This document shows, one piece after another, positions 7,776 through 49,400 of a stretch of DNA of 64,000 nt (positions are counted from its first letter, which is position 1; every line of letters starts with the position of its first letter). Position numbers and translations under genes: made by a program. The notes beneath the pieces are model-generated. The model ran no database searches and had not been told where the DNA came from. It saw nothing but the letters and a program-made list of their open reading frames with translations. This DNA comes from Trypanosoma brucei (taxonomy: Eukaryota): assembly GCA_000002445.1 (NCBI GenBank), contig CP000069.1, positions 992,001 to 1,056,000 on the forward strand, read 5' to 3'.

Positions 7776-7790
7776 GTTCAGAGAAGGAAG

Positions 7791-10750: not shown

Positions 10751-11015
10751 CCCGAAAGCGTGCCAGTGCCGTTTCCTCTTCCCTCGTCAGTTCTTCTTTA
10801 TGTTTTGTTGGAAAGTGGTTGCACGTGATACCAAACCTATGAGTGTTCTCATGGACTTCTTCCGACCTAAGCACTCGCTTCGCATAAGCAATGATGTCGG
10901 GGATCCATGCGTCTCGCAACTGTGGTAAATCAGCGGCCTTTTTGGCCATTTCATCGAAAACCTCATTCCGTTTCACGCCACAATGGCCGGACGCAAATTG
11001 CAGTCGGATACGCAC
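10572..11015 (-). pseudogene. RNase H segment of ingi copy 2.
   Basis: 147 aa, identical to the copy-1 segment. Confidence 0.7.
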
Positions 11016-11030
11016 CTTCCTTCTCTGAAC

Positions 11031-29051: not shown

Positions 29052-29816
29052 CTAAACAGCGAGCCTCTGCGCCAAGTCATCCAGTGCAAAAAGGCGCCGC
29101 TCCGTTGCGCCAACCACATCTTCTTCCTCTTCCCCTCCCAAAACAGAGCCACTTGACCCCGCGTTCCTTACAGGTGACTGCAAACATGAACGTGACGTAT
29201 CCTCCTTTGCAGGCGATACAAAGGCGGACAGACCGGCAACACTGCTGTTACCACTTTGTGTGCTTTGTCGGCTCTGTGTGGTGTATGAAGTGAAAGCACA
29301 ATCCCTTTTACTCGTTTTACCGGAGTCTACAATTGTCCTCCGGTCGTCATCCAGATGCGATATGGAAAAACTTTGTGTGCTAAGCGCAGCCCATTCATCT
29401 TGCAGACCCTTTTGCGCATTAACAACTTCCACCACAATACGCTCTGCAGCAAACAGTCGCTCTGAGAGAATCATACGTTCCTCTTCCGCCACCTTCAACT
29501 TCTTTTCCAGCATGTCAATGCGGTCGAACAAAGCGGAGGGATCAAACCCCTGAGGTGCTGCAACAGCCGCAGTTTCAACGATTCCAACTTTTGAGTTCGT
29601 TCTGTCATTCACAAACTTCACGTTAGGGACGTCATGACTGCGTTGGGAAGAAGCGGACGGTTTGATATCTCCTCCGCCTGCGGTTGGTATCCTTTTCTGT
29701 TTCTCATTACTGGGATCCAGACCATACTTTTTCCCCCATCGCTCCAGTTGCACATCAATTTCTTCCAACAGTTGCACAGTTCGCGCATCGTCAACCATGT
29801 TATTGTTGAGAAACAT
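29052..29816 (-). CDS. Hypothetical coiled-coil protein (about 255 aa).
   Basis: The track start is GTG. The first ATG is at 29814-29816, with an alternative at 29796-29798. A heptad-like region follows (FDRIDMLEKKLKVAEEERMILSERL). Confidence 0.45.
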   Translation of the reverse strand: MFLNNNMVDDARTVQLLEEIDVQLERWGKKYGLDPSNEKQKRIPTAGGGDIKPSASSQRSHDVPNVKFVNDRTNSKVGIVETAAVAAPQGFDPSALFDRIDMLEKKLKVAEEERMILSERLFAAERIVVEVVNAQKGLQDEWAALSTQSFSISHLDDDRRTIVDSGKTSKRDCAFTSYTTQSRQSTQSGNSSVAGLSAFVSPAKEDTSRSCLQSPVRNAGSSGSVLGGEEEEDVVGATERRLFALDDLAQRLAV

Positions 29817-32800
29817 AGGTCTCCTTGTGTGTTGTGAACGCTTTTGCAGAAACAACACGGTTCAGGTTACTTTTTTCTCCTAACTTCTTTGACGGTTCTT
29901 TCCTACAACCCACAAAGCGACATCAATATCAACAGTAATAATAGTAATAAGAACATCGTCGACGGGACATAGTGAATGGAAATGGAAGGAAAACACAAGA
30001 GGAATGAATTTACGAGTATTGATGTGTGTGTGTGTGTGTCGAGGGGAGGGGAGACAACCATAATTCTAACGAAAGTACGACACGAATTTCATATTGATAT
30101 TTGTACATTAACAGGCTGTTTCACTTATTCCTTTTATGGTTTATCCACCACTTCGTTTTGCCTCTCCGCCAGTTCGCCCAGCAGTTCAAATGAGCAGATG
30201 CAGTGCTACGCCGTAGTAAAAGCTAATTAATTAATGTGTCATGCATTTGTCTATAACGTTATTTTTACTTTCCTATATGTGACGTGGTGAGAAGATAAAA
30301 GAGAGTGATAATAAAAAGTGAAAATATTGTTCATTTACTTCTACAACTTCAAAAAACTCAATTTGTAGCATCAAACTTTATAATTTTCATGATATCACGA
30401 ACACTGGAGCGGATCACAGTGATCAATGTTAATCAAACGGAATGCACTGCATAAACAAGTAAACAAGCACAAGCGCACGACAGAAATAGAAAGGAAAAAA
30501 AAAACAAACAAAAGTACTGTGGTGTGACGACAACAACAATAAAGGCAGTACGATAATTTTATTTTTGAAGAAAAAAATAATTAATTTATCGTCCATGCCG
30601 CGTTATTTACTTTTCCCTTACCATCTAGTACGTTTGTCTTTTTTTTTTTTCAACTTCTGCATATGATATTGTTTCGCTTGTTTGTCTGCTGGTTCTGTTT
30701 TCCCTCCTCACATTTTCATATTTCCTTGAAAAAAGGAAAAAAAGTAAATAAAGAAAAACATCTTTAGTAACAACAAAAAAAAGCAAATATTCCCCCCTTC
30801 GCTGTGGTTATATACACAAATATATATATACATATATATATATTTATACATATATGTCTGACGAGGGTTAAAAAAAAACCGACAACAAATATGCAAAAAA
30901 AAATCGTGAAGATTATATCTCACCACGTGTGCGAGTCTTAGTTTTTTTTTATTTTTACAAAACAAATTCTCTACCTCACTAACACTATATGTGACGAATT
31001 TTATTTTTGTGTCTTCCGTGTTTTCCTTCAACTCCTTTCCTTCTTCAAATTATTTAATTTACTTTTCTTCGCTTTCGCTTTACTCCAACCCCCACCCACT
31101 TTTTTTTTTATTTTCCTTCATCTTTTTTTTTTTAAATGTCCCCTTCTTTTTCCCCTTTGAATGGTGTGAAAACAAGAAAAAAAAAGGAAAGGAAAGATGG
31201 AAAAGGGAAAAAAAATTTCTTTGTTTCCTTCAATATATATATTTATTTATTTACCTCTCTGTTGTTGATTTCATTTCTACTGCCCTTTTCTTTTGTTCCC
31301 TTCCCCCACTCAACAAATACTTTTAAAATAATGCAAATAGATAAATATATATGTATTGTATATACGTATATTTGAACAACTTTCTAGTAAGGGAAGAAAA
31401 AATTTTAATGGATGAAAATAAATATTTCTTTGCATGAAAATGTAATGGGAAGCAAAGTGGTAAAAAATGTTGCGGAGTTTGCCCGTCACGCACAGATTTT
31501 ACTCCTACTCTCATCATATGTTGATGTTCCTCTTTTTTTTTCCCCCTTCTTCTTTTTTATTTTTTTTACTAATTTTCACTTTCATTTGTATTTCTTCCGC
31601 ATGAGGTTTTTCGTGACATATGCAAACATACACACAAAAACACAAAAAACATAAAGAAGAAAAAAAAAAGGGAACGACAAAAAACAAAAAAAGAAATTGG
31701 TGAGTGAGCCTAACAGCCAGTCAAAATAATATAAAATAATAATTTTATTTAAAAAAAAACGGCATAAATATAAATAAATACAAAACAAAAGGCATACATA
31801 TATAAACTCACACAAACAAACATACATATAAATATATAAATATATATTTTAGAGGTGAAGAGGAAAGTTGGATACACATTTTCATAAATAAAAGCAAAAT
31901 AGATTGAAATGAAATGAGAATAAATTTGAGGAGCTTTGTAAAGAGATGTTGGAAGAGGTGAGGATGGGGTGGAGGAAAGGAAATAATTTTCTTGACAAAG
32001 GTGCACGAGGGGTACGTGTCCACGCACACATTAAAATACGCGAGCGCAATAAAATAAATATGTGTAGGATATATATAAATTTATATATGAAAAAAAAAAG
32101 AGGGAATAAATTTGTAGTGTTGACGCTGACAAAAAAAAATTGAAAAAAAAATTATACGAAGCTTACAAAAAGGCGTTAAATAGGATGTCCCCACCAACAT
32201 CGTGTTCCACCACAGGAATCAAAATTATGAAATTGAAATAATTTCGCCGTCGGTTCTCGGATTGCACTCGCGCATGATCTAACAACAATCAAACATAAAA
32301 GAATCATTGCAAAGAAAAAGATAATAATGATAATAATAAAAACGAAGGTAAATCCAGAAACCGGAGAAAACGATATTAACGGAAGCTCTCGAAGGTGATG
32401 TGGACTGTTTCCCAAAGAATTTAACATTACATAAAATTTTCCTTTTTATTTAAGTGAATTCTCTCTTTTCACTGAAATTTAGGTATTATTAGTGCTAACT
32501 ACCATTTCCTCCTTTTTTTTGTTATGTTATTTCTATTTGTGCCTTTGCCTTTGAGTTTTCACTCCATGAATTCCGCAACACGTGCTAACATACTCTCATC
32601 CATTTGATAATGATTTTTTCTTTTTCTTTCTTCATTTAACACTCAGTGACCTCTGTACGGCTTTCCTTCCATCTTAACAGATTCCTTCCATTTACCCCGT
32701 CTTTCTGATTTCGTAACTGCTTGTATTTTATTTTATTTTATTTCTCCTTTTCACTAACTTCACACACTTATTTTTTTTATATTTTTCTTTGATACAATGC

Positions 32801-33446
32801 TGCTGTTATAGTCATTGTTCCCCCTTTTTCCCATCGTTTTCACACCTTTTTCAAAAAAAAAAAAAAGGTCATGTGCTGCTTAACTGCTGGGGGAAAACAA
32901 TGGCTGAAGAGGATGTGAATTCCTCCCCTAGCATTCATAAAAATAATAGTAATAAATGAAATAAAAAGTAATTTCTTTTGAACAATTAATATATAAATAT
33001 ATTTATATCCTCCGTTCATCGTTTTTCAATTATTATTTTTATTATTTTTATTTGAATTGCCGTCATTAACTACTCATTTTCAAGAAATGTGTTGACCTTC
33101 GCTCTTGAAGGTGTTTCCGTTTTGTTTGAGTACAAAATTGCAGATAAATCGCTTTCTTTTTTTTTGTTTCGTCTTCTCCCTTTATTCAATTTCTGTATGT
33201 ACTTCTTTTGTATTTTTAAAAAATATATAAATATATATATCTTTTCTCGATTTCAACAGACATTTGCAAAGGGAAGTGTAATGAGGCGAGGCGGGAGGGA
33301 GGGAAGGAAGGGAAGGAGTTTATGATGATGATGAGAGGAAAGGAAGCAGCACGACACCGTAACTGCAAAAATATCTCAAAGGTGAAAAAAAAATTTAATA
33401 AAAAAAAGACATAAAACAAAGCAAACGGAAAAGTAGAAAAAAGCTT

Positions 33447-33462
33447 CCCCCCCCCCCCCCCC
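33447..33462 (+). repeat. C16 homopolymer (G16 on the minus, transcribed strand).
   Basis: Read directly from the sequence. Confidence 0.9.
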
Positions 33463-35973
33463 AACAAAAGACAGTGAGGATGCTCTCAAAAAAAAAAAAG
33501 GGAAAGAAAGGAGAAAAAGAGGGAGGAGAAGTCATGCAACAAAAACAACAATAATAATAATAATGAAACAGATAATTTCGAAAAAAAAAATTAAAAACGA
33601 TAAGGAAATGAAAAAAAATTTAGGTACAAAAGACAATGAAAAAAATGTAAAATAACGACTTTTACAACACCAAGAAGTTGTTTCAGAATAATATTGCAGT
33701 GACCATATTAATAAATGCAAACACACGCTTGCATGAAGACGTTGTAGCCCCCTTTTCCTCTCTGTTCTATTCCCTTATCATCTCCTTTTAAATCCGTTCA
33801 TCCATTCATTCATTCATTCACCTGTTTAAACATTTAAGCATTTACTTGATACGTCTTTTTCTTTCCTTTTCTTTACAATAACACGAGACTTTCAGGAGTT
33901 ATCGGTGAATTAATTTCCCAGTTTGTGCGAAATGAAATTCACTAACAGAAGAATTTTTAAAAATTGGAAGCATTTCTTCATTGCCATTTAAGCAATAAAT
34001 GGAGAAGCAAAAAAAAAAAAAGAATGAATAATACATTTTAAGAAAAAAAAGGAAAAAAGACTCTGAAGGTAAATAATAGGAGAAAAACGATTTGATGGGG
34101 GTTTCTGTACAACCTCATATCGTTTTAACCATATTTTAATTGCTTTCTCGGTCTTTCGAGTGTAATATTGTTGTAATATTTATCATTTTTGTTTTTTGTA
34201 TAACATATAAGTCACCTTTGTGTATTATTATTATTATTATTACACCTTTGCTTTTACTCCCTTTTACCTCTCTGTTTCCATTTGAATAACCCCTACCTTT
34301 TCTCCCCCTCCTCATAACACATGACGGAAATACATAAAACCTGCGCAAAAACGAGGTAAATTATAATACAAATACACAAGAAAAAGATTTATTTATTATC
34401 TTTTTAAATAATCCTTTTTTTTTATTTGACTCTACAACAGAATAAAATGAAATTGAAACAGCAAACAAGGATGTATCGACAAAAAAAAAAACAGAGTATT
34501 TGAAACGAAGACACCCAGTTTGTCGTTGTTTCCTGTATTTCATTTTCAAAAAAAAATTATTTATTTCGTCTCTTTCTTTTTGGTTAAACTCTTTTTCATT
34601 GCCTTTCCCTCACCACAAAGGTATCATAATTGCTACAATAACAGAAATAACAGCAACAGTAAGACTAATAATAGTAAAAACAATAATAATTGCATTCATT
34701 TTGAGCAGTGCTTTATTTTTTTAAAAAAAAACTTATTGTTTTTTAATTTCAATGCATTTCACCTCTATTTCTTCTAATTTCCCCCACTCCCCTTTTAATT
34801 CCTCTTTTTTAAAAATGAATTGGGTGCGTTGTTTCCTTACTAACTTTTGTTCTCGACTTTTATTTTTTTTCCCCCCTTCCATTTGCTCATTAATTAATTA
34901 ATTCTCACATTTGATTGACTGATTTATTTATTTATTCACATTAAAATAAAAAAAATCGATTTGTTCCTTGTGCGTTTTCTTTACTTCACTTCGCTTAACT
35001 TCACCGCTCGAAATGGTGCAATGCAAACCCGCGGGAAGAAAAGAAAAAAGAGAAAAAAGTTACCGTAATTATTTCCTCTTCTTTTCTTTTAGATTTGTTA
35101 CTATTTTTTGTTTTTTTTCCGATCCTTCCCTATTTTTTTTTTAAAAAAGGACAAAACAATAAAAGGCAACCCCAAATACTCCTTGGTAAAAAACGGAAAT
35201 AAAATAGGAAAAGACACATTTCCACATTTCCCCTTTTAAAACACACATGCGTAAACACCGCAGCATGTGGAACAAAATATTTTAAAGCTGCTTTGCAAAA
35301 AAAAAAATTTTATCCCTCAACACAAACATTTACACATATATTCGTAAATTTATATGCTCAAGTTTTTGTTTACTTTCCGTGGGATTTTACTCATTTCGTT
35401 ACTTTGTTCAGTTGTTTCTTCTGTTTAAATTATTATTTAAATATATCCTCTTAGGTTGATTTCCCTCATAATTTTCACACACATCACCAAGTACCGGGAG
35501 GGATAAAAATTAAAGGGAAATTTTTTTTAAAAAATAAGTAAATACAAAACTAGCATTAATAATAACAATAATAAAGAAGATATCACATGAGAGGAGGAAA
35601 AAAGAGTCAACAACAGGGAGGCTGAAACCCTCACCCCACCCCCCTCACACACACACATACACACATATATATATATATATATGTACGTATATATTGACAC
35701 ATATAAAACTATAAATAATCACATAACTTAGCCACGCCCCACAATTCTTATTATTGACTGTTTTTTTTTCTTTTCTTTTCCCCCCTCTTCCTCTTCTCCT
35801 TCTATTCTCTTTTTAACACACGCACACCACAACACCGCAACCATACGCCGCCGCCGCCACCGCCTTCCCCTTCGTTTCAATAGCCTCTGGTGGAAATGAC
35901 CATTATCACACAACTGCTGCTGTTATTGTTGTTATTAATACTATTTGTATTAATACTATTATTAATGTTACCA

Positions 35974-37017
35974 TTACCAGGGTCCATATACAAGTGTTCG
36001 CTGTGGGGGAAGTGGCACGAGTGTTGTATCCACCGCAGGCACTAAAAGAGCAGTAGGTGGCGCATTGAATTTAGTCGGGTGCAAGTTAACAGCATTGGGA
36101 GTGAGAAAAACCTGTTGTCCATTGCCCAGCACAAGTACACCATTGGCAGCTGGACAATCTGCAGTTTGTAACGGCACAGTTGCAGCAGCCCCGTCATAAC
36201 TCATATCAACTGGCAACAGTGGCGGCATTGCTGTCACTGGTGAGGTTGAAAAATATAACGGTTGCGCCCGAGGTTCTACCTCCACCATCGGTGCCACCAT
36301 TTTCGTTTTCGTCACATGATGTGCAGCGGGGGAACATGATGGTGAAGTTTCCGTAGCGGATTGCGACACCTGAGTTTGATTTAAACTCACAACACCGGGC
36401 CGTGGAGGCGGGAACAGGCAAGCGCCCTTCAGCGCAGGTCCGGGTGCCAGTCGTCCCTCTTCACGCCGCCGTCGTCGCTCACGTTTCGCCTCGTCGGTAT
36501 CGGCATATTTAACCATGATGGGAGGGCCTCCGAAGTGGTTGGAGTTGCCGTGTAATTTATCCAGCACCCGTTGGGCGTTCTGAGGGGTGTCAAACTCAGC
36601 GTAAACAACCCAAACGGGATTGCCGTGATGATCTCCACGCATTGCGCAATACTCAAGAGGGGCGAGGTTTGAAAGGAAATTTTGCACCTCCCGTTCCCCC
36701 ATGGTGGTGGGGATATTTCGGATATAAACTGCCCGTGATGGTAACGTGACTGCTTTGCCGTTGTGTTGTGAAGGATAAATGAGGAGGTTGAAGCTGCTAT
36801 TGCAGACACGCACGAGTTTGCGGTTGAGACGTTCATAAGCCGTCCTCCCTTCCTCCTCCTTATCAAAAAGTACAAAACCAAATCCTTTGCTGTTGCCAGT
36901 GGAGGGGTCTAACATTATCTTAGCACCAAGTGGGTTGAAATTACTAAAAATTTGAAGCAAGTCACCGTCACAAAGGTGACGTGGTAACTTTGCTACGAAC
37001 AAATTACTGTACCACAT
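35974..37017 (-). CDS. RNA-binding protein with two RRM domains (347 aa) and a Pro/Thr/Val-rich C-terminus. It is a DRBD-type protein.
   Basis: ATG confirmed. RRM1 has RNP2 LFVAKL and RNP1 KGFGFVLF. RRM2 has RNP2 VYIRNI and a degenerate RNP1 NPVWVVYAEF. Confidence 0.75.
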   Translation of the reverse strand: MWYSNLFVAKLPRHLCDGDLLQIFSNFNPLGAKIMLDPSTGNSKGFGFVLFDKEEEGRTAYERLNRKLVRVCNSSFNLLIYPSQHNGKAVTLPSRAVYIRNIPTTMGEREVQNFLSNLAPLEYCAMRGDHHGNPVWVVYAEFDTPQNAQRVLDKLHGNSNHFGGPPIMVKYADTDEAKRERRRRREEGRLAPGPALKGACLFPPPRPGVVSLNQTQVSQSATETSPSCSPAAHHVTKTKMVAPMVEVEPRAQPLYFSTSPVTAMPPLLPVDMSYDGAAATVPLQTADCPAANGVLVLGNGQQVFLTPNAVNLHPTKFNAPPTALLVPAVDTTLVPLPPQRTLVYGPW

Positions 37018-40000
37018 TAACGCTTCTGGTGCTAAAGTGTTGTTGTTGAAGTGGAGTTTTTTTTTATGTTTTGTGTTTCCTGCTTGTGCTTGTGCTTGTT
37101 CTTGATGGGATAACGATGTCTGTCCTTCCTTATGTTTTCTTTTTTCCTTTAACTCTTACCCTTTTCCGATTTGTTTAATATTATTATTTTTTTTCCTTTT
37201 TCACGTAAACGTCTTTTTTTTTTCAATTGCTTTCTTCTTCTAATCTTTATACCAACCCCTTCTCCCCTTGCGCGAATGGGGTGGATCTATTATTTTATTC
37301 GTCCCTTTTCAAAAAAAAAAAAACAACAACAACAACTGGGCACCCCGTTTTTTACCGCTTTTGATTGCTTCTCCCCCCTTTTTGCTTTTCGTTGTTTTTA
37401 TTCCGTATATATTTAAATATTTATGTATTTAAATATTTAGAGGTGTATAAATTGTCTTTGCTATTGCTCCTTTTCTTTTTCCTTCCTTCGTCTCTTTCTT
37501 GTTTGCGTATCTCTGTTAGTTGTTCTTTTTTTTTTTCTTGAGGAAAGGGATGTGTTGGGTCCCGTTTCTATCAATCAAGAAAGTGATTGATCGATGCAGA
37601 AACGACACGAACCGTCTAACCTCTTATTTTTCTTTTTTTCCCTTCTTCTTCTTCCTTTATTCCTCTTTATTTTTTTTGTTACTTTTGTTCTTTTTGCTTT
37701 TAAACTTGTGAAGAGTTTTCTATTATTATTATTATGATTTTACTTTCCCCTTCTTTTTTTCTGGTTTCCAACCTAAAGGCAATAAAATTGTGATTTTCGT
37801 TTGGTAGGTTGTGCGGAGTATCTCAACAGGTCCTGTTGGCGCTCAATGACGATCCCACCACCACGTGATTCACCTAAAAAAAAAAAATTAATTTAAAAAA
37901 TTTGCCTTTGCTTATTTATTTATTCCTTTTGGGTTGCCTACGCTTTTTTTTCCTTTTTCCTCTTTCCTTTATTGGCTCCAATAATCTCCTTTTTTTTTTG
38001 TCTTCCTTCCCTTATACAAGACGGGAAAAAACTGTGATTTGCCCGTTTTTCCTTCTTTAATCCTTTTTTCTTTTTTTAAAAAAAACAAAAAAACAAATAT
38101 ATATTTATATATGATTGATCTTATTTTTTTTTCCCCCTTCCCCCTAATTTTTTTTTTTGCTTCGTCTCCCTTTTACAAGCCTTCTCCCTTCAATCTGGTC
38201 AAAGCTGTCTTTTTCGATATGTTTTTATTTTTTTTATTTTTTAGTTTTGTTTTGAAGGAGAGTACAAATAAATAAATAAATAACAAAGACATTTAAATTA
38301 ATGAAGTTAAGTACAAGCAGAAAGGAAGAGAAGAGAATGGAATAAAATAAAAATATGTATTGATTGCACAATAGGTGAAATTCACATATATAAATGTAGA
38401 AATAAATGAATGCATGTTTTTATGGGGGAAATATATATATATATATATAACAAAATATGATATAAAATAAAATAAATAATATTAAAATATTAAGTTGTTT
38501 TCAATTTCAAATACAATTACTTAATAAATCTCTACAATTCACAGATTTTAATTAATCGCCACATCGCATAACGCCACAACATACAGAAATGCACACATGT
38601 ATGTGTTCAAAACATATGAAATATATGCTTCTAAGAAAAAATTTAAAAAATGTATATATATATATATATATATAACTATATGATTTCAACTAAACTATAC
38701 TTGTGCTATTTAAAGTGAGGGAGTGGGGGGAAAAAAGAAATGTATACAGACGAGTATATATTTATATATATACATATATAAATGAAGTATTATTCTTCAG
38801 GATAGTGGCAAAATATAAACAGACGCCAAAGAGAAAGATTTGGGTGCAGCATTAAGCAGTGAGGCAAGTGAAAAAAAATTTAAAAAAAACATTACTCATT
38901 TTTTTTTAGTTTGTTTTTTTTTTCTTCGATGATGTGTCTTTTGACGAGAGGGAATAGTGAACATAATATAAAAATAGACTTCAGTAACACAAAAAAAAAG
39001 TGAAGAAGAAAGAAAAAGAAAGGGGAAGATACGTGGGATGAAACGAAAACAAAAAAAATCTGAAAATAGGAAAAATCAAATGAAAAAAAAAACACCAAAA
39101 AAAAAAGGAAAAGATAAAAATTAAAAAAAAATCGGCACAACATTAAAAACACACAAACAAAACGGAAATTTGAAAAAAAAAGAAAGAAATAGAGAAAAGA
39201 AGATTGATGAAAAGAAAATTAAACAAAATTGGTCAAACACACACAAACAAACACACGCATACATAAATACATAAATACATACAACAAAAAAAAAAGGGCA
39301 TCGGGTAACGGGGTACTAATTATTATTATTATTATTTATCATTATTTTTTCCTTCCCTTTTGAAGCATCATTTCATTTCATTTCATTTTGTTTTTTTTTT
39401 CGTTTTGATCCTTTTGTTTCATATCCAGTGCCCAAAATTTTTGTTGCCTTCTAATCATTTCTCGAAACCCACAAATCCTTTTTTCTTTTTTTTCTTTTTT
39501 TTTTTTAAAAAAAAGAAGAAGAGTTAAATATAAAATAATAATAGTAATAGTAATAATAATAAAGAGTCCTCTCTTCCCACATTTTCGTTCTTTTTAAATT
39601 TAATTTAATATTATTTTTTCTCTCTTCAGTGGTGCGCATAAAAAAAAAAAAAAGAACACATGAAAAAGTAACTTCTCCATAATTGGGTTGAATTTCAGGA
39701 GATTTCGGAACGAAGAGGTATCACACAAAAATGAAAAATAAAAAGTAAAAAAAGTAAAAAAAAACAAAACAAAAAAGAGAGAAAGAGAAGTGTGAAAGAA
39801 AAGAAGCAAAAAGGTAAAAAAAACGGGTTTGAGAGTAATGAAGTGAAGTGGATATGAAGTGATTACGTCTGAACACGTAAAAGGTCACAAAAAAAAGGAA
39901 AATATTTTTTAAAAATAAAAATGATGGAGAATTTGAGGGGAGTGGCAAAAAAAAAACAAACAAAAACACACACACTTCCTTCCAACTTTCTCCCTACCCG

Positions 40001-40346
40001 TATAAATAAATATCTCATATTTGCTTCATTACTTCATTTCACTCATTTTATTTTACTTTTTTTTTTGTAACTCTCGTCTTTTCGTCACTTGTGTATCATT
40101 ACTCCGATAACATTTCATTTCCCTTCCCCTTTTTTTTCTCTTTCTCTCTATCTCTATCTCTTTTTCTTTTTTTAATTTGTTCCTTTTTATGGGTTCTCTT
40201 TCAGGCGATGGCACAAAAATAGTAATGATACCGATGGAAGTGTAAACAATAACAAAAAGAAAAAAAAAGAAAAAGAAAAAAAACCGAAAAAAGATGACGG
40301 TACCATCGGCGCCATTTTTCTTTTTTTTTTTTAAAGGAAGCAGCAG

Positions 40347-40372
40347 TAATAATAATAATAATAATAATAATT
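40347..40372 (+). repeat. (TAA)n microsatellite, about 8 units.
   Basis: Read directly from the sequence. Confidence 0.9.
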
Positions 40373-43300
40373 GTAGTAGTAGTAATTGTTGTTGTAGTAG
40401 TGGTGTTGCTTTCTTTTTTTTTCTTCTTTTGTGTAACATCAACATCAGAAAAAAAAAAGTTCTTTTACAAAAAATTATTTTTTTTTAAAAAGAAAAAAAA
40501 AGTAACACACAAACACAAACACAAACACACAAACATTTTAAGGAACGAAAAGTCGTAAAAATATTATCCAGTAATGCAAAATGAAGTGACACTTGCAAAC
40601 TTCCTCCTGTTCCTTTTCCTGCTCATGTCCTTTTGTTTTCCCCCATCCCTCAGCCCTTTCCTTTTTTTTAAAAAAAATTACAACACACACAAACACACAA
40701 ACACATAAATATATATATATATATATAAAGAAGTCCCCACTTTTTTTTTAAAAAACTCTTTGTAAAGATCAAAAGAAAAAAAAAGAAAAAATTACTATTT
40801 TTATTCTTATTGTTGCTATTTCTTTTTTTGGTTTGTTTGTTTGCTTCCTGTGCCTGATTGTAATTTTTTTAAAAATTTTTTCCCTACGTCACCATTATAT
40901 TCCCAACATTTGTCACATCTCCTTTTTCGTACCTCTTCATGTTCGAATTGGCGAAATCAATGCGAGAATATAAATAAATAAATATATTTATCTATTTTTT
41001 TTTTCCTTCTTCAACTGTTTCAATAATAAATTTTTTGTATTTATTTCTTTCCTTTTTTTTTGTTACTTTTGCTTCCCCCTTCTTTTTTTTCTTTCCTCCA
41101 TTATAACTTGCAGTGCCTCCATTTCCTTTTCCTTTTTATTTTTTTTCATTCCCATTTCTTTACCTTTCATCATCATCATTTCTTTTTTCTTCTTTTCTTC
41201 TTCTCACGTTCCGCTGTCATTTTATTTCTTTTTATTTTTATCATTTTCGAGTAAACCTCCGCCCCCCTCATCTCAACCACAGTCCCATCATTAATTCTTT
41301 ATTATTTTTTTTCCTTTTCTCTTTTTTTCTCTTCTCTTTTTTTTTCTTTTCTCCTCCCCATACCAAAAAGAAAAAAAAACAAAACAAAACAAAACAAAAA
41401 TAAATAAATAAATAATTTTTTTTTTAAAAAGAAGATCTCGACGCGATTATCCTCGTGGGGAGTCGTATCATATCGAAAAGGAAAGGAAAAAAAAAGAAGA
41501 AATGCGGGAGAGGTGAATAAAAGATAAATATATAAAAAGAAAAGATGAGGAGAACACATACAAAAAAACATAAACATACAAAAAAAATTAAAAGAAATAA
41601 AAAGAAATGGATGAAAAGGTTCAGATATGGAAAAGAGGAAAGGAGACACCAAAGCTCAAACATTAGGGGAAACAAAAAAATTTTTAACAAAAAATAAGAA
41701 GAACAGATACAAAAACTAATGAGGGAAATATTTAAAAAAAAACAACAATCACACAAACGCAAAGCATGAAAACAATAGAGGAGGGGGGAATAATAAAGGT
41801 ATAAAAAGAAACAAAAAAAAACCAAATTTAAAATAAAAACAAAGCAGAAAGAAGAAAAAAAGAAAAAAAAAGAGAAATCAAAAAAAAAAAAAACAGATGC
41901 CTCCTTTGCATTTACTTAAGACCCTTCAGGACAGATGCGTTGAAAAGGGCATCGTATTGCATTTATGTATGTTGTGCGTAGAAATAAATATGGAAATAAA
42001 TGAAGAGAAAAGGAATTAACGAAAAGTCGTAACGCTGTAAATAAGGAGAGAATCCCCCTCCTTATGCATTCTTCGCTTATTGATGTAATGCTTCAATTCG
42101 CTTCATTCGTTGAATCAAAATATATATTTTTTAAAAATTGTTTCTTTCTTTCTTTCTTGCACTGCACTCTCCTTTTCCTTTACTACTTCATATTTTCCCA
42201 TGACATCACATACATGCATAAATGCACACACATGTAAATAAACCAACTTATATTTATATATTCATAACACACGGTACAGTACAGTGTGATGCCCGAAATG
42301 AAAAAAAAAATCAAAACCAAAAACAAACCAAAAAGAAAAAAAACATTGAAAGAAGGAAACAGAATAAATCAACGAGTGTTACGGATTGGAGGCGAGAGAA
42401 GGTAAAAGTACGCGTGATTAATTATAAAACAAAAGTGCAGGTGAGGAAAAATTAGTTATACCGATGATGATGATGATGATGAAGATAGTTACAAAGTGGA
42501 AGCTAAAGGTGACGTGATAATAATAATAATAAACAACTGAGATATATATTTAAATATAAGTTAGAAATAAAAAAGAAAAAGAAATGCAGCGAAGCTCACA
42601 ACGAACAAAAAAAAAAAGAAAAAAAAGCAATGATTCGACCGAAACAATGAGTGAGTGTGAGTAGGAAACAAAAGAAAAAAAAGATATAAAGAAAAAAACA
42701 AAAAGGAACCATGAACAAAAACTGCGCGGATAAATAAACAAAAAAACAAAAACGATATCACAAAAGGGTTTGTATGATCGCGGTACTCTGCGGCAACACC
42801 AGCATCATTTATTTTCTCCTTTACGGTACGCGCGCCAGCAAATGGCTTGTCAGACTTTTTTGTTGCGCATATATTTTTTTTAAAAAAAGGAAAATTGAAA
42901 AAACAAACCTAAAATTAAAACTTTAATATGAGAACAACAACAAAAAAAAACGAAGATGATATCAAAACAAAAATAGGACCCTCATTGCCCATTGAAAAGT
43001 AAACTAAAATATTTAAAACATAAAAAACAACAGCTTAAGGTCTGATACTGACAGAAGAAGAAGAACAAAAAAAAAAAGAGAAATAAGAGCAATCTGAAAA
43101 CTTGAAGTCGAGCCTTCGCACCCTTAATAGTAATAATAATGATATTAATAATGAAACTGTGCGGTAACTTTCCCTCACCTCTCTTCCCCATATTTATGTT
43201 TTCTTTTTTTTCCTTTTAATTAGTCATCAGATCCTTTGGTTTTATTATTATTATTATTATTTATATTCCTTCTTTTATTTCTCTTCATTTCATTTTTCTC

Positions 43301-43580
43301 ATTTATTCTTCTGGTTACCTATCTGTTGATCTATTGATTGATTCATTTTGCATCGCTTTCCTTTTCCTTCTCTCCTTTTCTTTTGTGCTTTTGCATATTT
43401 TTTTATCTCTTATTCTCCTTTGCATTTTTTTTTTTGGTAAAGTGTGGAAAGGGAACTAAGAGGAATTCCTTTTTTAAAAAATAAAAATCCCCTTTCCCAC
43501 CTAAACCTCATATCTCAATTACGTTTCTCCTTCCTTCCTTTCTTATTTCCTTTTTTGTGTCTTTTTTTTTCCATTAATTT

Positions 43581-43599
43581 CCCCCCCCCCCCGCCCCCC
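43581..43599 (+). repeat. C12-G-C6 tract.
   Basis: Read directly from the sequence. Confidence 0.9.
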
Positions 43600-43640
43600 T
43601 CCCATTCAACTTCATTTCGTTCCGTCCATTTTAGATGTTG

Positions 43641-43661
43641 TATATATATATATATATATAT
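43641..43661 (+). repeat. (TA)10 microsatellite. Similar (AT)n runs occur near 18035, 28794-28817, 35666-35690, 38437, 38652, 40712, 60024 and 63075-63098.
   Basis: Read directly from the sequence. Confidence 0.9.
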
Positions 43662-45003
43662 TCTTCCCTCCCTCTGCTTTCTTTCTCATTTTGCTTTTTC
43701 GTCATAAATATATATTTGTGTAAACGTTGTCCATTAATATGGGCGTTGCTATTAGAAAATGGGAACAAACACAAATACAAAATAAGGAAAAAAAACAAAC
43801 ACGCAACGGAGAGACGGGAGCCAAATAACGAAAATGGAAACAAAAAAAGGTAATAAAATCAGGATTGTGTTTCAGGAGAAAAAGAAAGTAAGGAGCAAAA
43901 TTCGTAAAAGCTGCTACAAGGGAGTGAGAAGCAAAAACAAAAATAAAAAAAGGAAAATGATGAGAGAAAATAAAGATGGAAATAAAAAAAACAAATGAAA
44001 AGGTTATTTGAAAAAAAATTAAAGATGTTACTTTCTTTTACTATTTCCCTCCCTAGTCCTTTCATTCCGTTGAGTTGGCAAGTCGAGAGAACTTTATTCA
44101 TCATTTGCTTTTTTTTTATTTTCTCCTTTTTTTTTTGGAGGGGGGGGTTTCATTTTAAGTTTTTTCTTTGTTCCCAACAACTTTTGATATTAGAGGGGAA
44201 TTCGTGAAGCAAATATGAAGCCAACGAAAGGGAACTCCCCACACGCGCACACGCCCCGGTCAAATCCACTGCTTTTTCTTTTCCTTTTTTTTTTGCTATC
44301 TTCAGTTGATTGTTATTATTATTATTACTATTTTTCCCTTTTTCATTTTTTTTCGTCTTGGTTTGTAGGAAATTCTCCTTTTCACTGCTTACCACTCACA
44401 TTTACTTCATCAATTCCTTTTTTTTTCCTCCTCAACTTTTTTCCTTCCTTTATTTTACGTCCTCCTCCTCCTCCTTTCCCTTCCCTTTTTCCTTCTGTTC
44501 CGCTTAGATTCAAATAGAAAAATAAAAATAAAAATAAACTTAGCGAACAACAAAAACAAAACAAAACAAAACAAAAAAGAGGAAAGTTTCCTCCATTCAT
44601 GCGGTATAACACCACAATCACAATCAGAATCACCACACGTACAGATACAAATACGCGCAAATCCAATTACACAAAAAAAACACAACGCACAATTTCCCTA
44701 CTTTTCTTACTTCTTTTTTTTTTTATTCTTCAATTAAATCATACCTTTTCCTTTTCCTTCCTTATTTTCCCACTTTTTCTTTTTTCCTCACCCACTCAAC
44801 CATTTTTTTTTCTCTTTTTTTAAAAATATTTTCATTCCTTCTTCATTCTTTTCCTCCTTTCATTTCTTTCTTTCTTTTTATTTTTTTTTAAAATTATCTT
44901 TCCTTCCTACTAATTTCCGATGCAGTTTTTTTTTCCTTCTTTTTTTTCTCTTTTTCTTTTTTTTTCTCTTTTTCTATTTTTGTTTTTCCCCTTTCCAAAT
45001 GTC

Positions 45004-45312
45004 TCAATCCTCCAACCTTACGCTGTAAAAACTGTACGGATCATGGCGGAAGCGTGAGGCATAAGCGGGTGGGAGAACCATTTCATTTTGCACAGCAGCG
45101 CTGTATGGAGGTGGTGGCGGAAGGTCGGGTTTCTCACCATGTGAAAAGGCGCAACGGGACCCAAACGAGCAATGCGCACCGAACCGATAATTACGGCACG
45201 GTTGCGTGCGGAATTTGCTGGCGTCAACACCCCTGCGTCCATTACGTGAGCCACTGAAGCTGAGGCTGTTTTCTGATCGCACGTCGGAAAGAGTGGGTGT
45301 TGAAATGTGCAT
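45004..45312 (-). CDS. ZFP1: Small CCCH zinc-finger protein with a PY (PPPPPY) motif. It resembles TbZFP1 (102 aa).
   Basis: ATG confirmed. A single C-x8-C-x5-C-x3-H finger is present (CRNYRFGAHCSFGSRCAFSH), followed by PPPPPY. The size and architecture match the TbZFP1 description from memory. Confidence 0.55.
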   Translation of the reverse strand: MHISTPTLSDVRSENSLSFSGSRNGRRGVDASKFRTQPCRNYRFGAHCSFGSRCAFSHGEKPDLPPPPPYSAAVQNEMVLPPAYASRFRHDPYSFYSVRLED

Positions 45313-46417
45313 TGCCGCTCTCCTTTTTCTTTTCTTCTTCTCTCTCTTTTTTCCTTCCTGTTTTCCTTCCGGGTTATCTCTTCTTGCTTTTTGGTATGTC
45401 CTTCGTACCGTATGCTTTTCTAAAGTTTTCCGTGAAGTATTGTTGTTCTTCCTTCTCTTCGTGAATGCTCCTGCTTAACGGTGTTGTCGCCTCTTTAGCT
45501 GTATTCAAGGAGTGAATAACAGATAGATGGCTGTAATCCCGAGAAAACTTTTTTTTTTATTGGTGTAAGTTTCGCTTAGTGCTAAAAGGAAAAAAAAAAG
45601 GTCGCTTGAGGTCTGCTGTGGGAATGGAAATCTCCTTCTTATTGCAAAAATAAAGAAAAGAGAAAGAGAAAGAGGAAACGTTTATAAAGAATAACTTCTT
45701 CATATGGAAATAATAATAATAATGGGAAAATAACACAAAAGGATGAGTGTTTAAAAACATAAGATGATAAACACAAGCGGGAGTTGTTGCTGCAAAGATT
45801 GAGACAGACCTAGCATCAGTAAGAGGTGAACCATGAGTTGAGTGACATGGAAAACCGACAAACAAATAAAGAAAGAAAAAACATATTATTTGGCGCTTTT
45901 CAGTTACCCATACACCAAAAAAAGCAAAATTTCATTTAGTAGAATGACGGGTATGTGTTTCTTCTTGCTCTTTTTCCTTTTTGGTATTATTAATATTACT
46001 ATAATAATAATAATTACTGTTATTATTATTATTATTTTTTTTTTCTTCACTCATTTTTTTTGCCGACAGATGTTGAAAACAAACAAACAAAAGCAAACAA
46101 AGGGACAAACAGTTCCTAACTTCTACTACCCAATATTTTCCTCCTTTCCCTTTCCTATTGCCTCATCCACATAGGCAAACGCACAGCCACACAAACGCGA
46201 ACACAAATAACCAGAAGTGGGCGAGCAGGCGCGACATCCCGGTAACCACCTTTGACCAACTTCAAAAGTTCTCCTTTTCTTTCCTCATTTTTTTTTGTTT
46301 CTGAATGTTCTTTTCTTCTCTTCTTTTCCTTCCCCTCCCTCGGCGTATGCTCCGGATTTCTATGCTTTTTTTTTGCAAATTCCTCCACTCCGCAATTTAA
46401 CCCTTCTCACCGCATAA

Positions 46418-49400
46418 TTATATCGGTGGTGGCTCGTCATCATTTCCAACGGCACTTGTTGAAGCAAGTGTAATCGAAAGTAACTGTTGCTGATGGTTGT
46501 TACGATGCGTATTTTCCAAATAACCACCCACACGAGGCCCTGAAAGGAAGAGATCGTGGCTTTGCTCTTTATATTTTGCCCAGACAGGACTTGCTGAGAG
46601 GATCTCCTCCACGCGCTGACCATGAATGGGATCCTTCAGATCTGCGATTGCCTTAAGGACTTTAATGATAAGAGCCCGTACAGCCGCCGGAGCCTGATCT
46701 CCACACACTTCAGGGGTGAGTCCATTCTCTAACCATTCGAGTAAGCGCTGGACAAGTTGATTTTGAAGGGCGAGGCGTAAAATGTTAACACGAGAGGATG
46801 GACGGGAAAAAAGACGGCACAACATATCCATGAGAATCGGCAACTGCGATGGGTGGGACCGCTGGTATGCGAGGAGGGATGCGATAAGATCAAAGTTCGC
46901 CAAACTCTCTACACAAACAGGAGAACCACATTCTTCACGTACCAACTTCAGCGCATTCTCTGATACCACGTCTTCCGGCGATTCCATTAGTGTAAACAAC
47001 TTTTGGGCATATCCAAGGGAAACTATGTGATCCACCATCGAGCTAGTTGTTCGAAGCAGTGTGAGAGCTGAGTCGGCAACAAGTGTGAGGATTTCGGCAT
47101 TACGTTCCCCTGCAGAGCGACCACATTCCTCTGCGAAACGGCCCAACAGGGCTGAAAGAAATTCCTTCGGTTTCCGAACCACCCACCCCGATTGGCTCAA
47201 GTACCTCTTCAAGTACACACCGCCAACCTGCAACTCATCGATGTTCTCAACCATGATGCTCTCCGGCAAACTCCACGTGGCGCTGGGGGAGCGCTGCAAC
47301 AATGCAGCAATCTCTTCCTGATATGTGGTGCAATTATCCACAAAGCGAGCTCGGCGCTCTTTAGTCCACACCAACTCGGGAGTTTCCTGGTAGGTGTCGA
47401 GAAGCTGGCAGGCGGCCACGGGGTTCTCTTTCATGGTATCAAGTATAGCGTAAGGGAGCAATTTTAATATGTGCAGTGTCGCCTTTGGTCCCCACAATTT
47501 ATTTGTGCTTATTTTCACGAGAGCCAAACAGGCATCATTCCTACATTCTGGGTTCGTTGTCGTTGCAATAATGCGAAGCAGCAATACATACAAGCCACGA
47601 TCAAAGGCTTGCTGTACAAAAGCACACTCCGGAAGTGCCACATTGAGGAATGCAAGACAACATCGTTCCACTGCAACACCATCACGAACCATAGCCAACA
47701 ATACTTCGGTAACAGCTGTATCAACCCTACACATAGCCTCAAGACAGTTACGATGAAATGTAACCTTCTCCAAAAGCTCAGATGATTTGATTGTGATGGC
47801 GGTGTCCTTGTACGAAAGTAGTTTTAACAAAATAGCTACATATCGCTCCAGAACAGTTGCCACATCGGCGGTTTGGTACGCAACTACCAAGTTCTTCGCC
47901 GCCTCCACTACCATGAGCACGCCCTCAGAGGAGTTCTTACCAATCTGAGCCTGCAGGTACGCCATTAAAGCACTACAGAAGGCAGCAGGCTCCTCAATAG
48001 GGTAATTGGATTGCTCATTATATATTCGCACAAACAAATCACCCACAATAAGCTCATCCTTATGGAGTTTGTATATGAAGCGCTCATCGATGTTAAAAGG
48101 TAGATCATGAGTAACCATGCCACCGTTAAAGCACTTCTCAGAGTTTGAACCCACAATCTCCAACAACTGCTCACGTGTTTCGTTGTTCCACAATAGGTAT
48201 GGCGTTTCGTGATTTGTGTTGAGCATCTTCAAAATCTCTTCCTCTGCACCCGGAAGTTTTGACATCTTCTGGATTATAAATGGGGTTAGTAATCTCTTAA
48301 GCGCCGTGAACACTTTGGCATTGCTAGGCGTGTTCAAATAATCCTCAGATGGCACAATACCGGCCATAGCATATAGAGCCTGTAGCGCATAAACTGCCGC
48401 ACGGTTGGCGAAAAGTTGTGTATGATTTTCCTCCTGCATCTCGATTCCGCTCTGAACCAATGTCGAATCGTAACGGAAAAGGAGAAGTAAGAGATGCCAC
48501 ATCGCACCGTGTTGTATAACACGCTCCTGCAAAACGTCGTCCACGCACAACTCACGGCATGTTTGAATGCAGGCGCGGGAAAGTGCCAGCGCCTTATCGT
48601 ATGCGATGCCTTTGGCCGCAAAATGGCAGATCGTAGGTTCTAGATGAATGCGGCTACGGGATTCAGGGAACTTAGCAGCGACGGAGAACGTGAGCATGGT
48701 GTTACACAGTATCTTCACTTGCGTAAGGTCGTCGGTCGCAGCTGGTGTGAGTGTCTCGGAGCAACGCTGCATAACTGCTGAAAGTAAAGCTATTCCACCT
48801 TCCTCCTGAAGCTCATCAGCGTTAAGAGAAACATTACGCACGGTGTGATAACACAATTCCATTGCTGGTACCATGAGGACGGTGTCTTTGTGTAGCATGT
48901 TGGGGTCCTCATACTCCATCTTGACAAGTTTTAACAGGAGACTGTAACCAGCGTACTTGTAGCGACTCAGCGTTTCAGCATGACGTTTATACAGAATAGA
49001 TTGGGTTCGAAGAAGGAGGTCAATGTTATTTGGATCGGGTTCGCTTGACTCCAGCGTGTCTGACGCGAGAAACTCGTATGCTACCTGAATACGTTCGAAT
49101 TTATCACGTCCGTCTGGGTTTTTGTCAGGGTGATACTTTGCCGCGAGCTTAAAGTATGCCTTGCGCACCGTCTGCTGCGTGGCTCCCGTCGCCTCCGTAA
49201 TACCAAGTTCTGCCAAACAACCTTCACGACTGAGTCCACTCGGTTTCTTTTCTAGTTCACACTGCCACGCAATGAGAACTTCGCGCAATAGTGAAATAGG
49301 ATCGGCAATAGGCCAGTTTGGGTAGCGTAGTTCATCACACAAGTGTCGCAGATAATATTGTGAACAGAAAAGCTCGCGCTTAAGTTGCTCATATACTATG

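Follow-up and report, generated by a model that had tools for sequence, protein, structure and literature searches.

Gene content and composition of the tract

The window (the whole stretch of DNA analyzed, 64,000 nucleotides, numbered 1-64,000) corresponds to positions 992001-1056000 of Trypanosoma brucei TREU927 chromosome 6. For both genes of interest, the coding sequence coordinates in Table S3 of Kolev et al. (2010) differ from those of the window by exactly 992000. The first gene, DRBD5 (Tb927.6.3480; positions 35974..37017, minus strand; 1044 nt in published tables), encodes 347 amino acids with two RRM_1 stretches (Pfam, E = 2.4e-20). This domain content, the position beside ZFP1, and conserved synteny identify it as DRBD5; it shares 99% identity with the T. 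b. gambiense orthologue, and gene order is the same in the two genomes. The second gene, ZFP1 (Tb927.6.3490; 45004..45312, minus strand; 309 nt in published tables), encodes 102 amino acids with one zf-CCCH match (Pfam, residues 34-60, E = 7e-5). Its translation contains a single C-x8-C-x5-C-x3-H finger together with a proline-rich PY motif (PPPPPY) and an HDPY motif, the features of a small CCCH differentiation regulator of about 100 amino acids. ZFP2 and ZFP3 bind via WW domains. The HDPY motif is recorded for ZFP1 in Table S1 of Clayton (2019), a review that also describes ZFP1, ZFP2, and ZFP3 as interacting mutually. The Pfam matches at 35974-37017 and 45004-45312 thus bear out the two-RRM and CCCH proteins that a preliminary description of this DNA had placed there; the family assigned to the latter was right, although the protein is ZFP1 itself rather than merely ZFP1-like. 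Upstream in the same minus-strand unit lies an RME-8/DnaJ protein gene (46418-53128, minus strand, Pfam profile match), and downstream of DRBD5 lies Tb927.6.3470.

The gaps between coding sequences around DRBD5 and ZFP1 measured 6115, 7986, and 1105 nt, in agreement with the earlier estimates of about 6, 8, and 1.1 kb. The remaining 10 gaps of the same unit had a median of 518 nt, the longest being 1547 nt; relative to this local median, the two long gaps are about 12-fold and 15-fold larger. Their excess over ordinary spacing was correctly recognized, although the "few kb" originally taken as typical was generous. The tract is also compositionally distinct: GC content was 25-34% versus 46-54% in coding sequence, and simple repeats occupied 12-20% versus 6% of other intergenic DNA and 0.7% of coding sequence. 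Tandem Repeats Finder returned 25 rows. Tracts of at least 20 nt (36 polypyrimidine and 59 A-rich polypurine in 16.6 kb) occurred at 2.2 and 3.6 per kb, respectively, versus about 0.5 per kb in the rest of the unit. These counts match the low complexity, pyrimidine-rich and A-rich blocks, and microsatellites first reported. Every apparent repeat family was a polypyrimidine or polypurine run or a CA, TA, or TAA microsatellite; dispersed repeats and retroelement fragments were considered and rejected, as only low-complexity families were found.

Transcript ends and processing signals

Transcript ends were taken from the tables of a single RNA-seq study of cultured procyclic forms (Kolev et al., 2010). 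There, the ZFP1 mRNA extends from 1037637 to 1030798 on Tb927_06_v4 (window positions 45637-38798). The resulting 5'UTR (45313..45637, minus strand) is 325 nt long and lacks ATG, and upstream of the transcript start is a polypyrimidine tract (45678-45646) followed by AG. The longest tabulated 3'UTR (38798..45003, minus strand; 30% GC) spans 6206 nt; on its sense strand it contains 21 internal polypyrimidine tracts, each 20 nt or longer. The DRBD5 mRNA is tabulated at 1030208-1022388 (window positions 38208-30388). Its longest 3'UTR, listed as alternatively processed (30388..35973, minus strand; 31% GC), spans 5586 nt with 11 internal polypyrimidine tracts, and its 5'UTR (37018..38208, minus strand) is 1191 nt long, 67% purine, and devoid of AUG. 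A polypyrimidine tract lies upstream of the DRBD5 5' end (38353-38319), and an AG (38210-38209) abuts the start at 38208. A more proximal T-rich tract followed by AG (37305..37335, minus strand) is a candidate alternative splice acceptor that, as a prediction from sequence, would give a DRBD5 5'UTR of about 290 nt. Two short Logan contigs containing DRBD5 were considered as spliced-leader evidence and set aside; both were devoid of spliced-leader sequence and appear genomic.

Two small RNAs, each trans-spliced and polyadenylated, are tabulated in the same study (Table S7). Tb6.NT.66 (38416..38705, minus strand; 289 nt; 0.13 per cell) sits in the space separating the ZFP1 and DRBD5 mRNAs, directly downstream of a polypyrimidine tract (38740-38717) and AG. 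Tb6.NT.65 (30012..30272, minus strand; 260 nt; 1.04 per cell) lies between the DRBD5 3' end and Tb927.6.3470, with an AG and a pyrimidine-rich stretch directly upstream. The published ends and these signals give each RNA a splice acceptor and a poly(A) site of its own, and neither has a coding ORF. Each of the four 5' ends published for the tract (ZFP1, NT.66, DRBD5, and NT.65) directly follows an AG and has a pyrimidine tract upstream of it, and a blind scan for polypyrimidine tracts and the next AG recovered three of the four to the base.

The ZFP1 and DRBD5 mRNAs cover 87.5% of the non-coding bases in the tract. Multi-kilobase UTRs, as proposed in the preliminary description, are thus found in the published end mapping (3'UTRs of 6206 nt for ZFP1 and 5586 nt for DRBD5), and the processing signals are confirmed in the sequence. 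The 8 kb gap does contain a long UTR but is not a single one, comprising the ZFP1 3'UTR, the 289-nt transcript, and the 1.19 kb DRBD5 5'UTR. From the observed gene identities, transcript ends, and processing signals, and from the absence of other genes in the tract (see below), we conclude with a probability of about 0.85 that the tract consists of the untranslated sequence of two adjacent known regulators, ZFP1 and DRBD5, in a minus-strand polycistronic unit of chromosome 6.

Conservation of the tract and of the DRBD5 leader

We compared the locus with those of other trypanosomes. Relative to T. b. gambiense, the bulk of the UTRs carried 2.2-2.6 substitutions per 100 nt and 7-13 indel events per kb, and nearby short intergenic regions carried 2.3-3.9 substitutions per 100 nt. 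By this measure the UTR bulk shows no sign of constraint, its divergence being in the same range as that of nearby intergenic DNA. A blastn comparison (word size 9) with the corresponding loci of T. congolense, T. theileri, and T. cruzi returned coding sequence matches and short non-collinear homopolymer matches only, with no collinear conserved non-coding block; the search for conserved blocks that the preliminary description had proposed was therefore negative for T. congolense. The order of RME-8, ZFP1, and DRBD5 is also present in T. cruzi, where a second ZFP1-like gene, absent from T. brucei, sits between ZFP1 and DRBD5. In both T. cruzi and T. theileri, DRBD5 is followed by a second RRM paralogue and a gene of 418-458 amino acids, both likewise absent from T. 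brucei. A gap-free T. cruzi assembly nevertheless has a long gene-free gap after DRBD5 (6.86 kb, 38% GC). Gap lengths in T. theileri were left out of the comparison because about half of the bases are N.

The DRBD5 leader behaves differently from the UTR bulk in one respect. No ATG occurs in its 1191 nt, versus a mean of 9.5 and a minimum of 3 in 500 dinucleotide shuffles, and the AUG-free zone reaches 84 nt beyond (upstream of) the mapped splice site. The leader measures 1.19 kb in T. brucei and about 1.28 kb in T. b. gambiense. In T. congolense it reaches about 1.5 kb and shows no sequence similarity to that of T. brucei; length, not sequence, is what the two share. Its freedom from AUG is evidence that the long DRBD5 5'UTR is really used, and the absence of AUG in all three is indicative of selection on that part of the transcript.

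These comparisons bear on one alternative, which we consider improbable: that the long gaps are functionally neutral, an expanded microsatellite-rich spacer arising in part from gene loss and transcribed passively within the polycistron. Divergence from T. b. gambiense equal to that of ordinary intergenic DNA, the many indels, the lack of any block conserved across species, and the genes present at this locus in T. cruzi and T. theileri but missing from T. brucei are all consistent with it. However, the missing genes have left no detectable remnant, indicating that the tract is not simply the decay product of lost genes, and the T. cruzi gap coexists with the extra genes, indicating that the long 3' region of DRBD5 predates the gene loss. 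The purging of AUG from the leader in T. brucei, T. b. gambiense, and T. congolense also argues against neutrality, as does the class-wide tie of long 3'UTRs to RNA-binding protein and kinase mRNAs (Clayton, 2019), which speaks against chance.

Alternative processing within the 3'UTRs

Both ZFP1 and DRBD5 are flagged "alt 3UTR" in the tables of Kolev et al. (2010), a class defined there by three products: the full-length mRNA, a shorter RNA that retains the ORF, and a putative non-coding RNA. That study reports 394 genes with unambiguous processing inside the 3'UTR, with Northern validation of examples. For the two genes here, the flag means that the full-length forms are accompanied by shorter mRNAs and by non-coding RNAs from within the UTR. 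Heterogeneity is especially marked for ZFP1: its averaged 3'UTR in Table S13 is 2913 nt, and its poly(A) sites have a dispersion of 2885 nt, which no other value approaches in the stretches of that table compared. The site called predominant lies at 44976, only 28 nt past the stop codon. Given this site and the 2.9 kb average, the 6.2 kb form may be a minority of ZFP1 molecules. Directly past the stop codon, however, our tract scan detected a 71-nt A-rich polypurine tract (44926..44996, minus strand); because the site falls within its genome-encoded A runs and the first polypyrimidine tract downstream is reached only after about 390 nt, this site plausibly stems from internal priming by oligo(dT).

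Such processing also leaves room for a second alternative, in which short 3'UTRs predominate among the mRNAs and separate functional lncRNAs account for most of what remains of the tract, as with grumpy beside RBP7. We regard this as rather less probable than the neutral spacer. In its favor are the putative UTR-internal non-coding transcript included in the flag for both genes, the tabulated ZFP1 site 28 nt past the stop, the presence of a downstream AG for every one of the 32 internal polypyrimidine tracts, the existence of NT.65 and NT.66, and published T. brucei lncRNA catalogues with a functional example, grumpy. Yet a full-length transcript of each gene is still recorded in the Kolev table, and the 28-nt site lies in a genomic A tract with no polypyrimidine tract at the usual distance of 120-180 nt downstream. 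Nor do independent transcripts fill the tract, an outcome that the preliminary description had considered: NT.65 and NT.66 together amount to 551 nt, or 3.6% of its non-coding sequence. Tract sequence is not conserved and gives no Rfam structure or family signal. For NT.65 and NT.66, comparison with T. b. gambiense gave 4.1 and 1.15 substitutions per 100 nt.

Search for additional genes

We searched the tract for genes that annotation might have missed. ATG-initiated ORFs did not exceed 130 amino acids and translated to poly-F/L/K strings. The longest (40053-40445, minus strand; 130 amino acids) surpassed the 95th percentile of longest ORFs in mononucleotide shuffles (88 amino acids), and it derives from TAA/TTG repeats and homopolymers that yield poly-L/K/F. 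ARAGORN detected no tRNA genes in the tract, Rfam gave no match at the gathering score and noise alone at E<=1, and the T. b. gambiense DAL972 annotation places no gene within either long gap. Searching the window by tblastn with 44 DRBD5-family proteins returned noise outside known coding sequences, leading us to reject a hidden paralogue or pseudogene; decayed copies of the syntenic T. cruzi and T. theileri genes were rejected on the same grounds. Although the 130-residue ORF exceeds its shuffle threshold and Kolev et al. (2010) report about 1,100 novel transcripts across the genome, including some that are coding, the low complexity of that ORF, a GC content of 25-33% throughout, the lack of tblastn matches with all syntenic proteins, and the absence of tRNA, Rfam, and DAL972 gene support make it very improbable that the tract conceals unannotated protein-coding or small structured RNA (snoRNA or tRNA) genes.

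A model for the locus and its relation to known systems

In the UTR reading that we favor, RNA polymerase II would read from RME-8 through to Tb927.6.3470, and mRNAs would be released by trans-splicing at a polypyrimidine tract and AG, with the upstream RNA polyadenylated roughly 90-210 nt before the acceptor. The acceptor that ends the longest mapped form lies 6.3 kb past the stop codon for ZFP1 and 5.7 kb past it for DRBD5; because these acceptors are so distant, full-length mRNAs carry 3'UTRs of 6.2 and 5.6 kb. The more than 30 internal polypyrimidine tracts would act as weaker alternative processing signals, generating shorter mRNAs and non-coding 3'UTR fragments, and NT.65 and NT.66 would be by-products of closely spaced signals. 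By analogy with the literature on this class of transcripts, the long AT-rich low-complexity UTRs may lower mRNA abundance and may offer many low-specificity sites for RNA-binding proteins, allowing stage-specific control.

Published data are in line with developmental regulation of both genes. DRBD5 mRNA is 4.1-4.6 fold more abundant in bloodstream forms, and the gene ranks among the top ones for better translation in that stage. ZFP1 is highest in midgut and procyclic forms, with raised levels both during differentiation to the procyclic stage and afterward. Long low-complexity 3'UTRs are a described property of trypanosome RNA-binding protein mRNAs, for which two reasons have been proposed (Clayton, 2019). 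ZC3H28 binds long 3'UTRs with low-complexity sequence; DRBD18-bound mRNAs have longer 3'UTRs, and loss of DRBD18 alters processing inside long UTRs. Both genes are listed in Table S1 of Clayton (2019) and in the RBP10 tables of 2017, without UTR lengths, and we found no functional dissection of either UTR in the searchable literature. A role for these UTRs as an RBP-binding platform is plausible; the one motif tried, that of RBP10 (UAUUUUUU), was not enriched (2 versus 4.1 expected, and 3 versus 2.6), and over-represented words were microsatellite derived only.

Among known systems, the T. brucei RBP10 mRNA (more than 7.5 kb, mostly 3'UTR) and the ZC3H20/21/22 mRNAs (3'UTRs of more than 4 kb) resemble those of ZFP1 and DRBD5 most closely: all come from developmentally regulated RNA-binding protein genes with multi-kilobase 3'UTRs and internal processing signals, and full-length and truncated forms exist side by side. 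Unlike those of ZFP1 and DRBD5 in the searchable literature, the RBP10 UTR has been tested for a regulatory role and for dependence on DRBD18, and regulation of ZC3H20-22 is explained by the RBP10-binding motif that is not enriched here. ZFP1 and DRBD5 are the same in kind as the 394-gene class in the Kolev tables, of which they are listed members, with the expected internal polypyrimidine tracts present. NT.65 and NT.66 resemble the ORF-less processed intergenic RNAs of the procyclin loci (Clayton, 2019) and the grumpy lncRNA in being short, trans-spliced, polyadenylated, and located between mRNAs beside regulator genes; however, their abundance is very low (1.04 and 0.13 per cell) and any function is purely putative.

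Together, these results indicate that the 16 kb gene-poor stretch is made up of the known, already mapped multi-kilobase low-complexity UTRs of ZFP1 and DRBD5. Inference of long UTRs from sequence alone was correct, but the feature itself is ordinary: the genes, the transcript ends, and the long-UTR rule for trypanosome RNA-binding protein mRNAs were all published before, and as a discovery the tract matters little. The negative result is of practical value in that nothing unannotated is concealed in the 16 kb tract, and a by-product of interest to specialists is a T. brucei locus without the second ZFP1-like gene, the second DRBD5 paralogue, and the 418-458-amino-acid gene. The AUG-free DRBD5 leader is a small point that may be new. 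We suggest tentatively, as a possibility well short of an expectation, that this purine-rich leader is a selected, scanning-competent translational control element of salivarian trypanosomes that, with the 5.6 kb 3'UTR, would explain the bloodstream-form-biased translation of DRBD5. A weaker variant of this idea is that the 3'UTR-internal RNAs of ZFP1 and DRBD5 would be functional lncRNAs. Conservation of the leader in length but not in sequence between T. brucei and T. congolense makes the hypothesis of translational control directly testable.

Two RNA-binding protein genes occupy a gene-poor tract

Rightward of ~15.4 kb, all long ORFs in the window were on the minus strand, indicating a single polycistronic unit transcribed from right to left. 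Only two credible ORFs were found in the tract (window positions 29859 to 46417), both on the minus strand. One (35974 to 37017) encodes a 347-amino-acid (aa) protein with two RRM_1 stretches (Pfam) that shared 99% identity with a T. brucei gambiense protein annotated as "RNA-binding protein, putative" and had full-length identities of 40 to 49% with orthologues from other Trypanosoma species. The other (45004 to 45312) specifies a 102-aa protein in which a single C-x8-C-x5-C-x3-H zinc finger is accompanied by PPPPPY and HDPY motifs. Both ORFs were offset by exactly 992000 from the published coding sequences (CDSs) of Tb927.6.3480 (1027974 to 1029017) and Tb927.6.3490 (1037004 to 1037312) in Tb927_06_v4 (Kolev et al. 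2010, PMC2936537, Table S3), which places the window at positions 992001 to 1056000 of T. brucei TREU927 chromosome 6. These genes are named in published tables as DRBD5 (CDS, 1044 nt) and ZFP1 (CDS, 309 nt), respectively. The tract is bordered upstream by a gene for an RME-8-type DnaJ protein (46418 to 53128, minus strand; Pfam) and downstream by a gene for a 254- to 268-aa protein without a Pfam match (29052 to 29858, minus strand).

The inter-CDS gaps around ZFP1 and DRBD5 measured 1105, 7986, and 6115 nt, compared to a median of 518 nt (maximum, 1547 nt) for the remaining 10 gaps of the same unit. GC content was 25 to 34% in the tract versus 46 to 54% in coding DNA, and homopolymer or microsatellite runs made up 12 to 20% of tract bases versus 6% of other intergenic DNA. 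Tandem Repeats Finder returned 25 rows for the tract, and tracts of at least 20 nt (36 polypyrimidine, 59 polypurine) occurred at a per-kb density 4 to 7 times that of the rest of the unit. Elsewhere in the tract there was no credible coding ORF: ATG-initiated ORFs were at most 130 aa and consisted of poly-F/L/K derived from repeats. No tRNAs were detected in the tract, its repeats belonged to low-complexity families only, and an Rfam scan returned no family at gathering score; at E ≤ 1, the hits were confined to noise from miRNA models. Likewise, no genes are annotated in the equivalent T. b. gambiense gaps (8.26 and 6.15 kb). These ORF, gap, GC, and repeat measures bore out the preliminary description of a low-complexity tract holding only two regulators.

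At the left end of the window, plus-strand ORFs meet the minus-strand unit at a pair of inverted 3.7-kb element copies (5429 to 9149 and 9657 to 13377) with 99% complementarity and 507 nt between them. In each copy, one ORF encodes a reverse transcriptase (RVT_1) and another a C2H2 zinc finger, identifying the pair as ingi-like non-LTR retroelements arranged tail to tail. The right-hand copy is spanned by Tb6.NT.64 (14996 to 9645, minus strand), a novel transcript named by Kolev et al. In AT-rich DNA left of the pair, a 425-aa ORF (1742 to 3019, plus strand) with a VSG_B domain (E = 7e-22) probably represents a VSG-related internal gene or pseudogene.

Mapped transcript ends support multi-kilobase UTRs

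According to published ends, ZFP1 mRNA extends 5' to 3' from 45637 to 38798, with a 5'UTR of 325 nt and a 3'UTR of 6206 nt, and DRBD5 mRNA extends from 38208 to 30388, with a 5'UTR of 1191 nt and a 3'UTR of 5586 nt (PMC2936537, Table S3). Two novel minus-strand transcripts complete the tiling of the tract by four RNAs: Tb6.NT.66 (38705 to 38416; 289 nt, 0.13 per cell) and Tb6.NT.65 (30272 to 30012; 260 nt, 1.04 per cell) (PMC2936537, Table S7). Independent transcripts filling the tract in place of long UTRs would be the alternative reading; Tb6.NT.65 and Tb6.NT.66 together cover 3.6% of its noncoding bases, and the four UTRs cover 87.5%. When checked in the sequence, all four published 5' ends directly followed an AG with an upstream pyrimidine tract. 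Three of the four 3' ends lay 92 to 116 nt ahead of the next acceptor, with that of Tb6.NT.66 at 207 nt. An independent search that paired each polypyrimidine tract with the first AG after it recovered 45637, 38705, and 38208 exactly. Published ends and matching processing signals thus support multi-kb UTRs for both regulators.

Both genes are also marked "alt 3UTR" (Kolev et al. 2010, PMC2936537, Table S3), a label for genes with unambiguous UTR-internal processing into three products: the full-length mRNA, a shorter mRNA that still contains the ORF, and a putative noncoding fragment; examples were confirmed by Northern blotting (PMC2936537). We attribute this status to internal processing signals, since the sense strand of the ZFP1 3'UTR has 21 polypyrimidine tracts of ≥20 nt and that of the DRBD5 3'UTR has 11, all followed by an AG downstream.

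The averaged ZFP1 3'UTR is given as 2913 nt with a dispersion of 2885 nt, and the "predominant" poly(A) site as position 44976, 28 nt past the stop codon (PMC2936537, Table S13). This site falls within a 71-nt genome-encoded, A-rich polypurine tract (44926 to 44996, minus strand), and the nearest downstream polypyrimidine tract is ~390 nt away. Judging from this sequence context, the site may be an artefact of internal oligo(dT) priming in the 2010 data set. Owing to this site, the fraction of ZFP1 mRNA that is truly long is the chief uncertainty.

UTR length and composition, but not sequence, are retained across trypanosomes

The order RME-8, ZFP1, DRBD5 is kept in T. cruzi, and the order ZFP-like, DRBD5 is kept in T. 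theileri. At the T. cruzi locus (L007), ZFP1 and DRBD5 are separated by a second ZFP1-like CCCH gene (7564 to 7941; 125 aa), and a second two-RRM paralogue (18026 to 18664; 212 aa) and a 418-aa gene (19899 to 21155) lie downstream of DRBD5. Downstream of DRBD5 in T. theileri (L005), a second two-RRM paralogue (10001 to 10951; 316 aa) and a 458-aa gene (13516 to 14892) precede orthologues of the T. brucei 254- to 268-aa and 564- to 565-aa genes. Since Leishmania and Porcisia also have paired paralogues with adjacent locus tags, two copies probably represent the ancestral state. No remnant of the second ZFP1-like gene, the second RRM paralogue, or the 418- to 458-aa gene was found in the T. brucei window. 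This comparison, which is of T. brucei with T. cruzi and T. theileri because the T. congolense contig stops 1.4 kb past DRBD5, suggests that the extra genes were cleanly lost in the T. brucei lineage. In the gap-free T. cruzi assembly, 6.86 kb of gene-free DNA (38% GC) lies downstream of DRBD5 even with the extra genes retained, so the long DRBD5 3' region is older than the gene loss. Gap lengths from T. theileri were excluded because half of the bases are N.

The preliminary description had proposed T. congolense, among others, as a reference for conserved noncoding blocks; none emerged, as nucleotide alignment of the locus with T. congolense, T. theileri, and T. cruzi recovered CDSs only. 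Relative to T. b. gambiense, the two long 3'UTRs differed by 2.2 to 2.6 substitutions per 100 nt and 7 to 13 indel events per kb, nearby short intergenic regions by 2.3 to 3.9 and 6 to 9, and complete CDSs by 0.3 to 1.2 and 0, respectively. Across species, then, UTR length and composition were retained, but sequence was not. Divergence from T. b. gambiense (L001) was greatest in the 3'-most quarter of the ZFP1 3'UTR (window 38726 to 40727 versus L001 6231 to 8250), with 91% identity including gaps versus 95 to 97% elsewhere, for the most part through microsatellite indels.

Regulatory potential and an AUG-free DRBD5 leader

Many mRNAs for RNA-binding proteins (RBPs) have 3'UTRs several kb in length, for which low abundance and multiprotein control have been proposed as reasons (Clayton 2019). 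ZC3H28 binds preferentially to long 3'UTRs that contain low-complexity sequence. DRBD18-bound mRNAs have longer 3'UTRs, within which processing changes upon DRBD18 loss. At this locus, the RBP10 site UAUUUUUU was not enriched (2 and 3 occurrences versus 4.1 and 2.6 expected), and enriched words were limited to UAUUUAU, (UAU)3, and AAGAA, which stem from microsatellites and purine tracts. The suggested RBP "binding platform" is thus an idea drawn from the literature on this class of mRNA, with nothing locus-specific found. Overall, this feature is not new: both genes have been named and studied, their ends mapped, and their alternative processing listed by Kolev et al. (2010), and the class behaviour of long RBP 3'UTRs has been reviewed. 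Our analysis confirmed the initial observation and supported its interpretation, refined by the identities of ZFP1 and DRBD5, the mapped ends, and alternative processing.

The 1191-nt DRBD5 leader contained no ATG. Dinucleotide shuffles (n = 500) averaged 9.5 ATGs, with a minimum of 3 and none reaching zero, and each of the other five permutations of the letters A, T, and G occurred 6 to 12 times in the leader. The AUG-free zone (37018 to 38292, minus strand; 1275 nt) extends upstream past the mapped splice acceptor by 84 nt; zones of the other 13 genes in the unit spanned 36 to 471 nt, and the two long 3'UTRs had normal or high ATG counts (113 and 102). The corresponding zone is 1278 nt in T. 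b. gambiense (L001 8723 to 10000), 620 nt in T. theileri, and 340 nt in T. cruzi. In T. congolense (L008 1945 to 3483), it spans 1536 nt (shuffle mean, 12.1; minimum, 3), begins a short distance upstream of a pyrimidine tract, and did not resemble the T. brucei leader in nucleotide comparison. As read from sequence, the absence of ATGs is independent evidence that the long DRBD5 leader is truly used and under selection against upstream start codons. DRBD5 mRNA is 4.1- to 4.6-fold up in bloodstream forms, and DRBD5 ranks among genes with far better translation in that stage; ZFP1 peaks in midgut and procyclic forms. We infer that the long AUG-free leader, possibly a new detail of this locus, fits the reported stage-specific translation of DRBD5.
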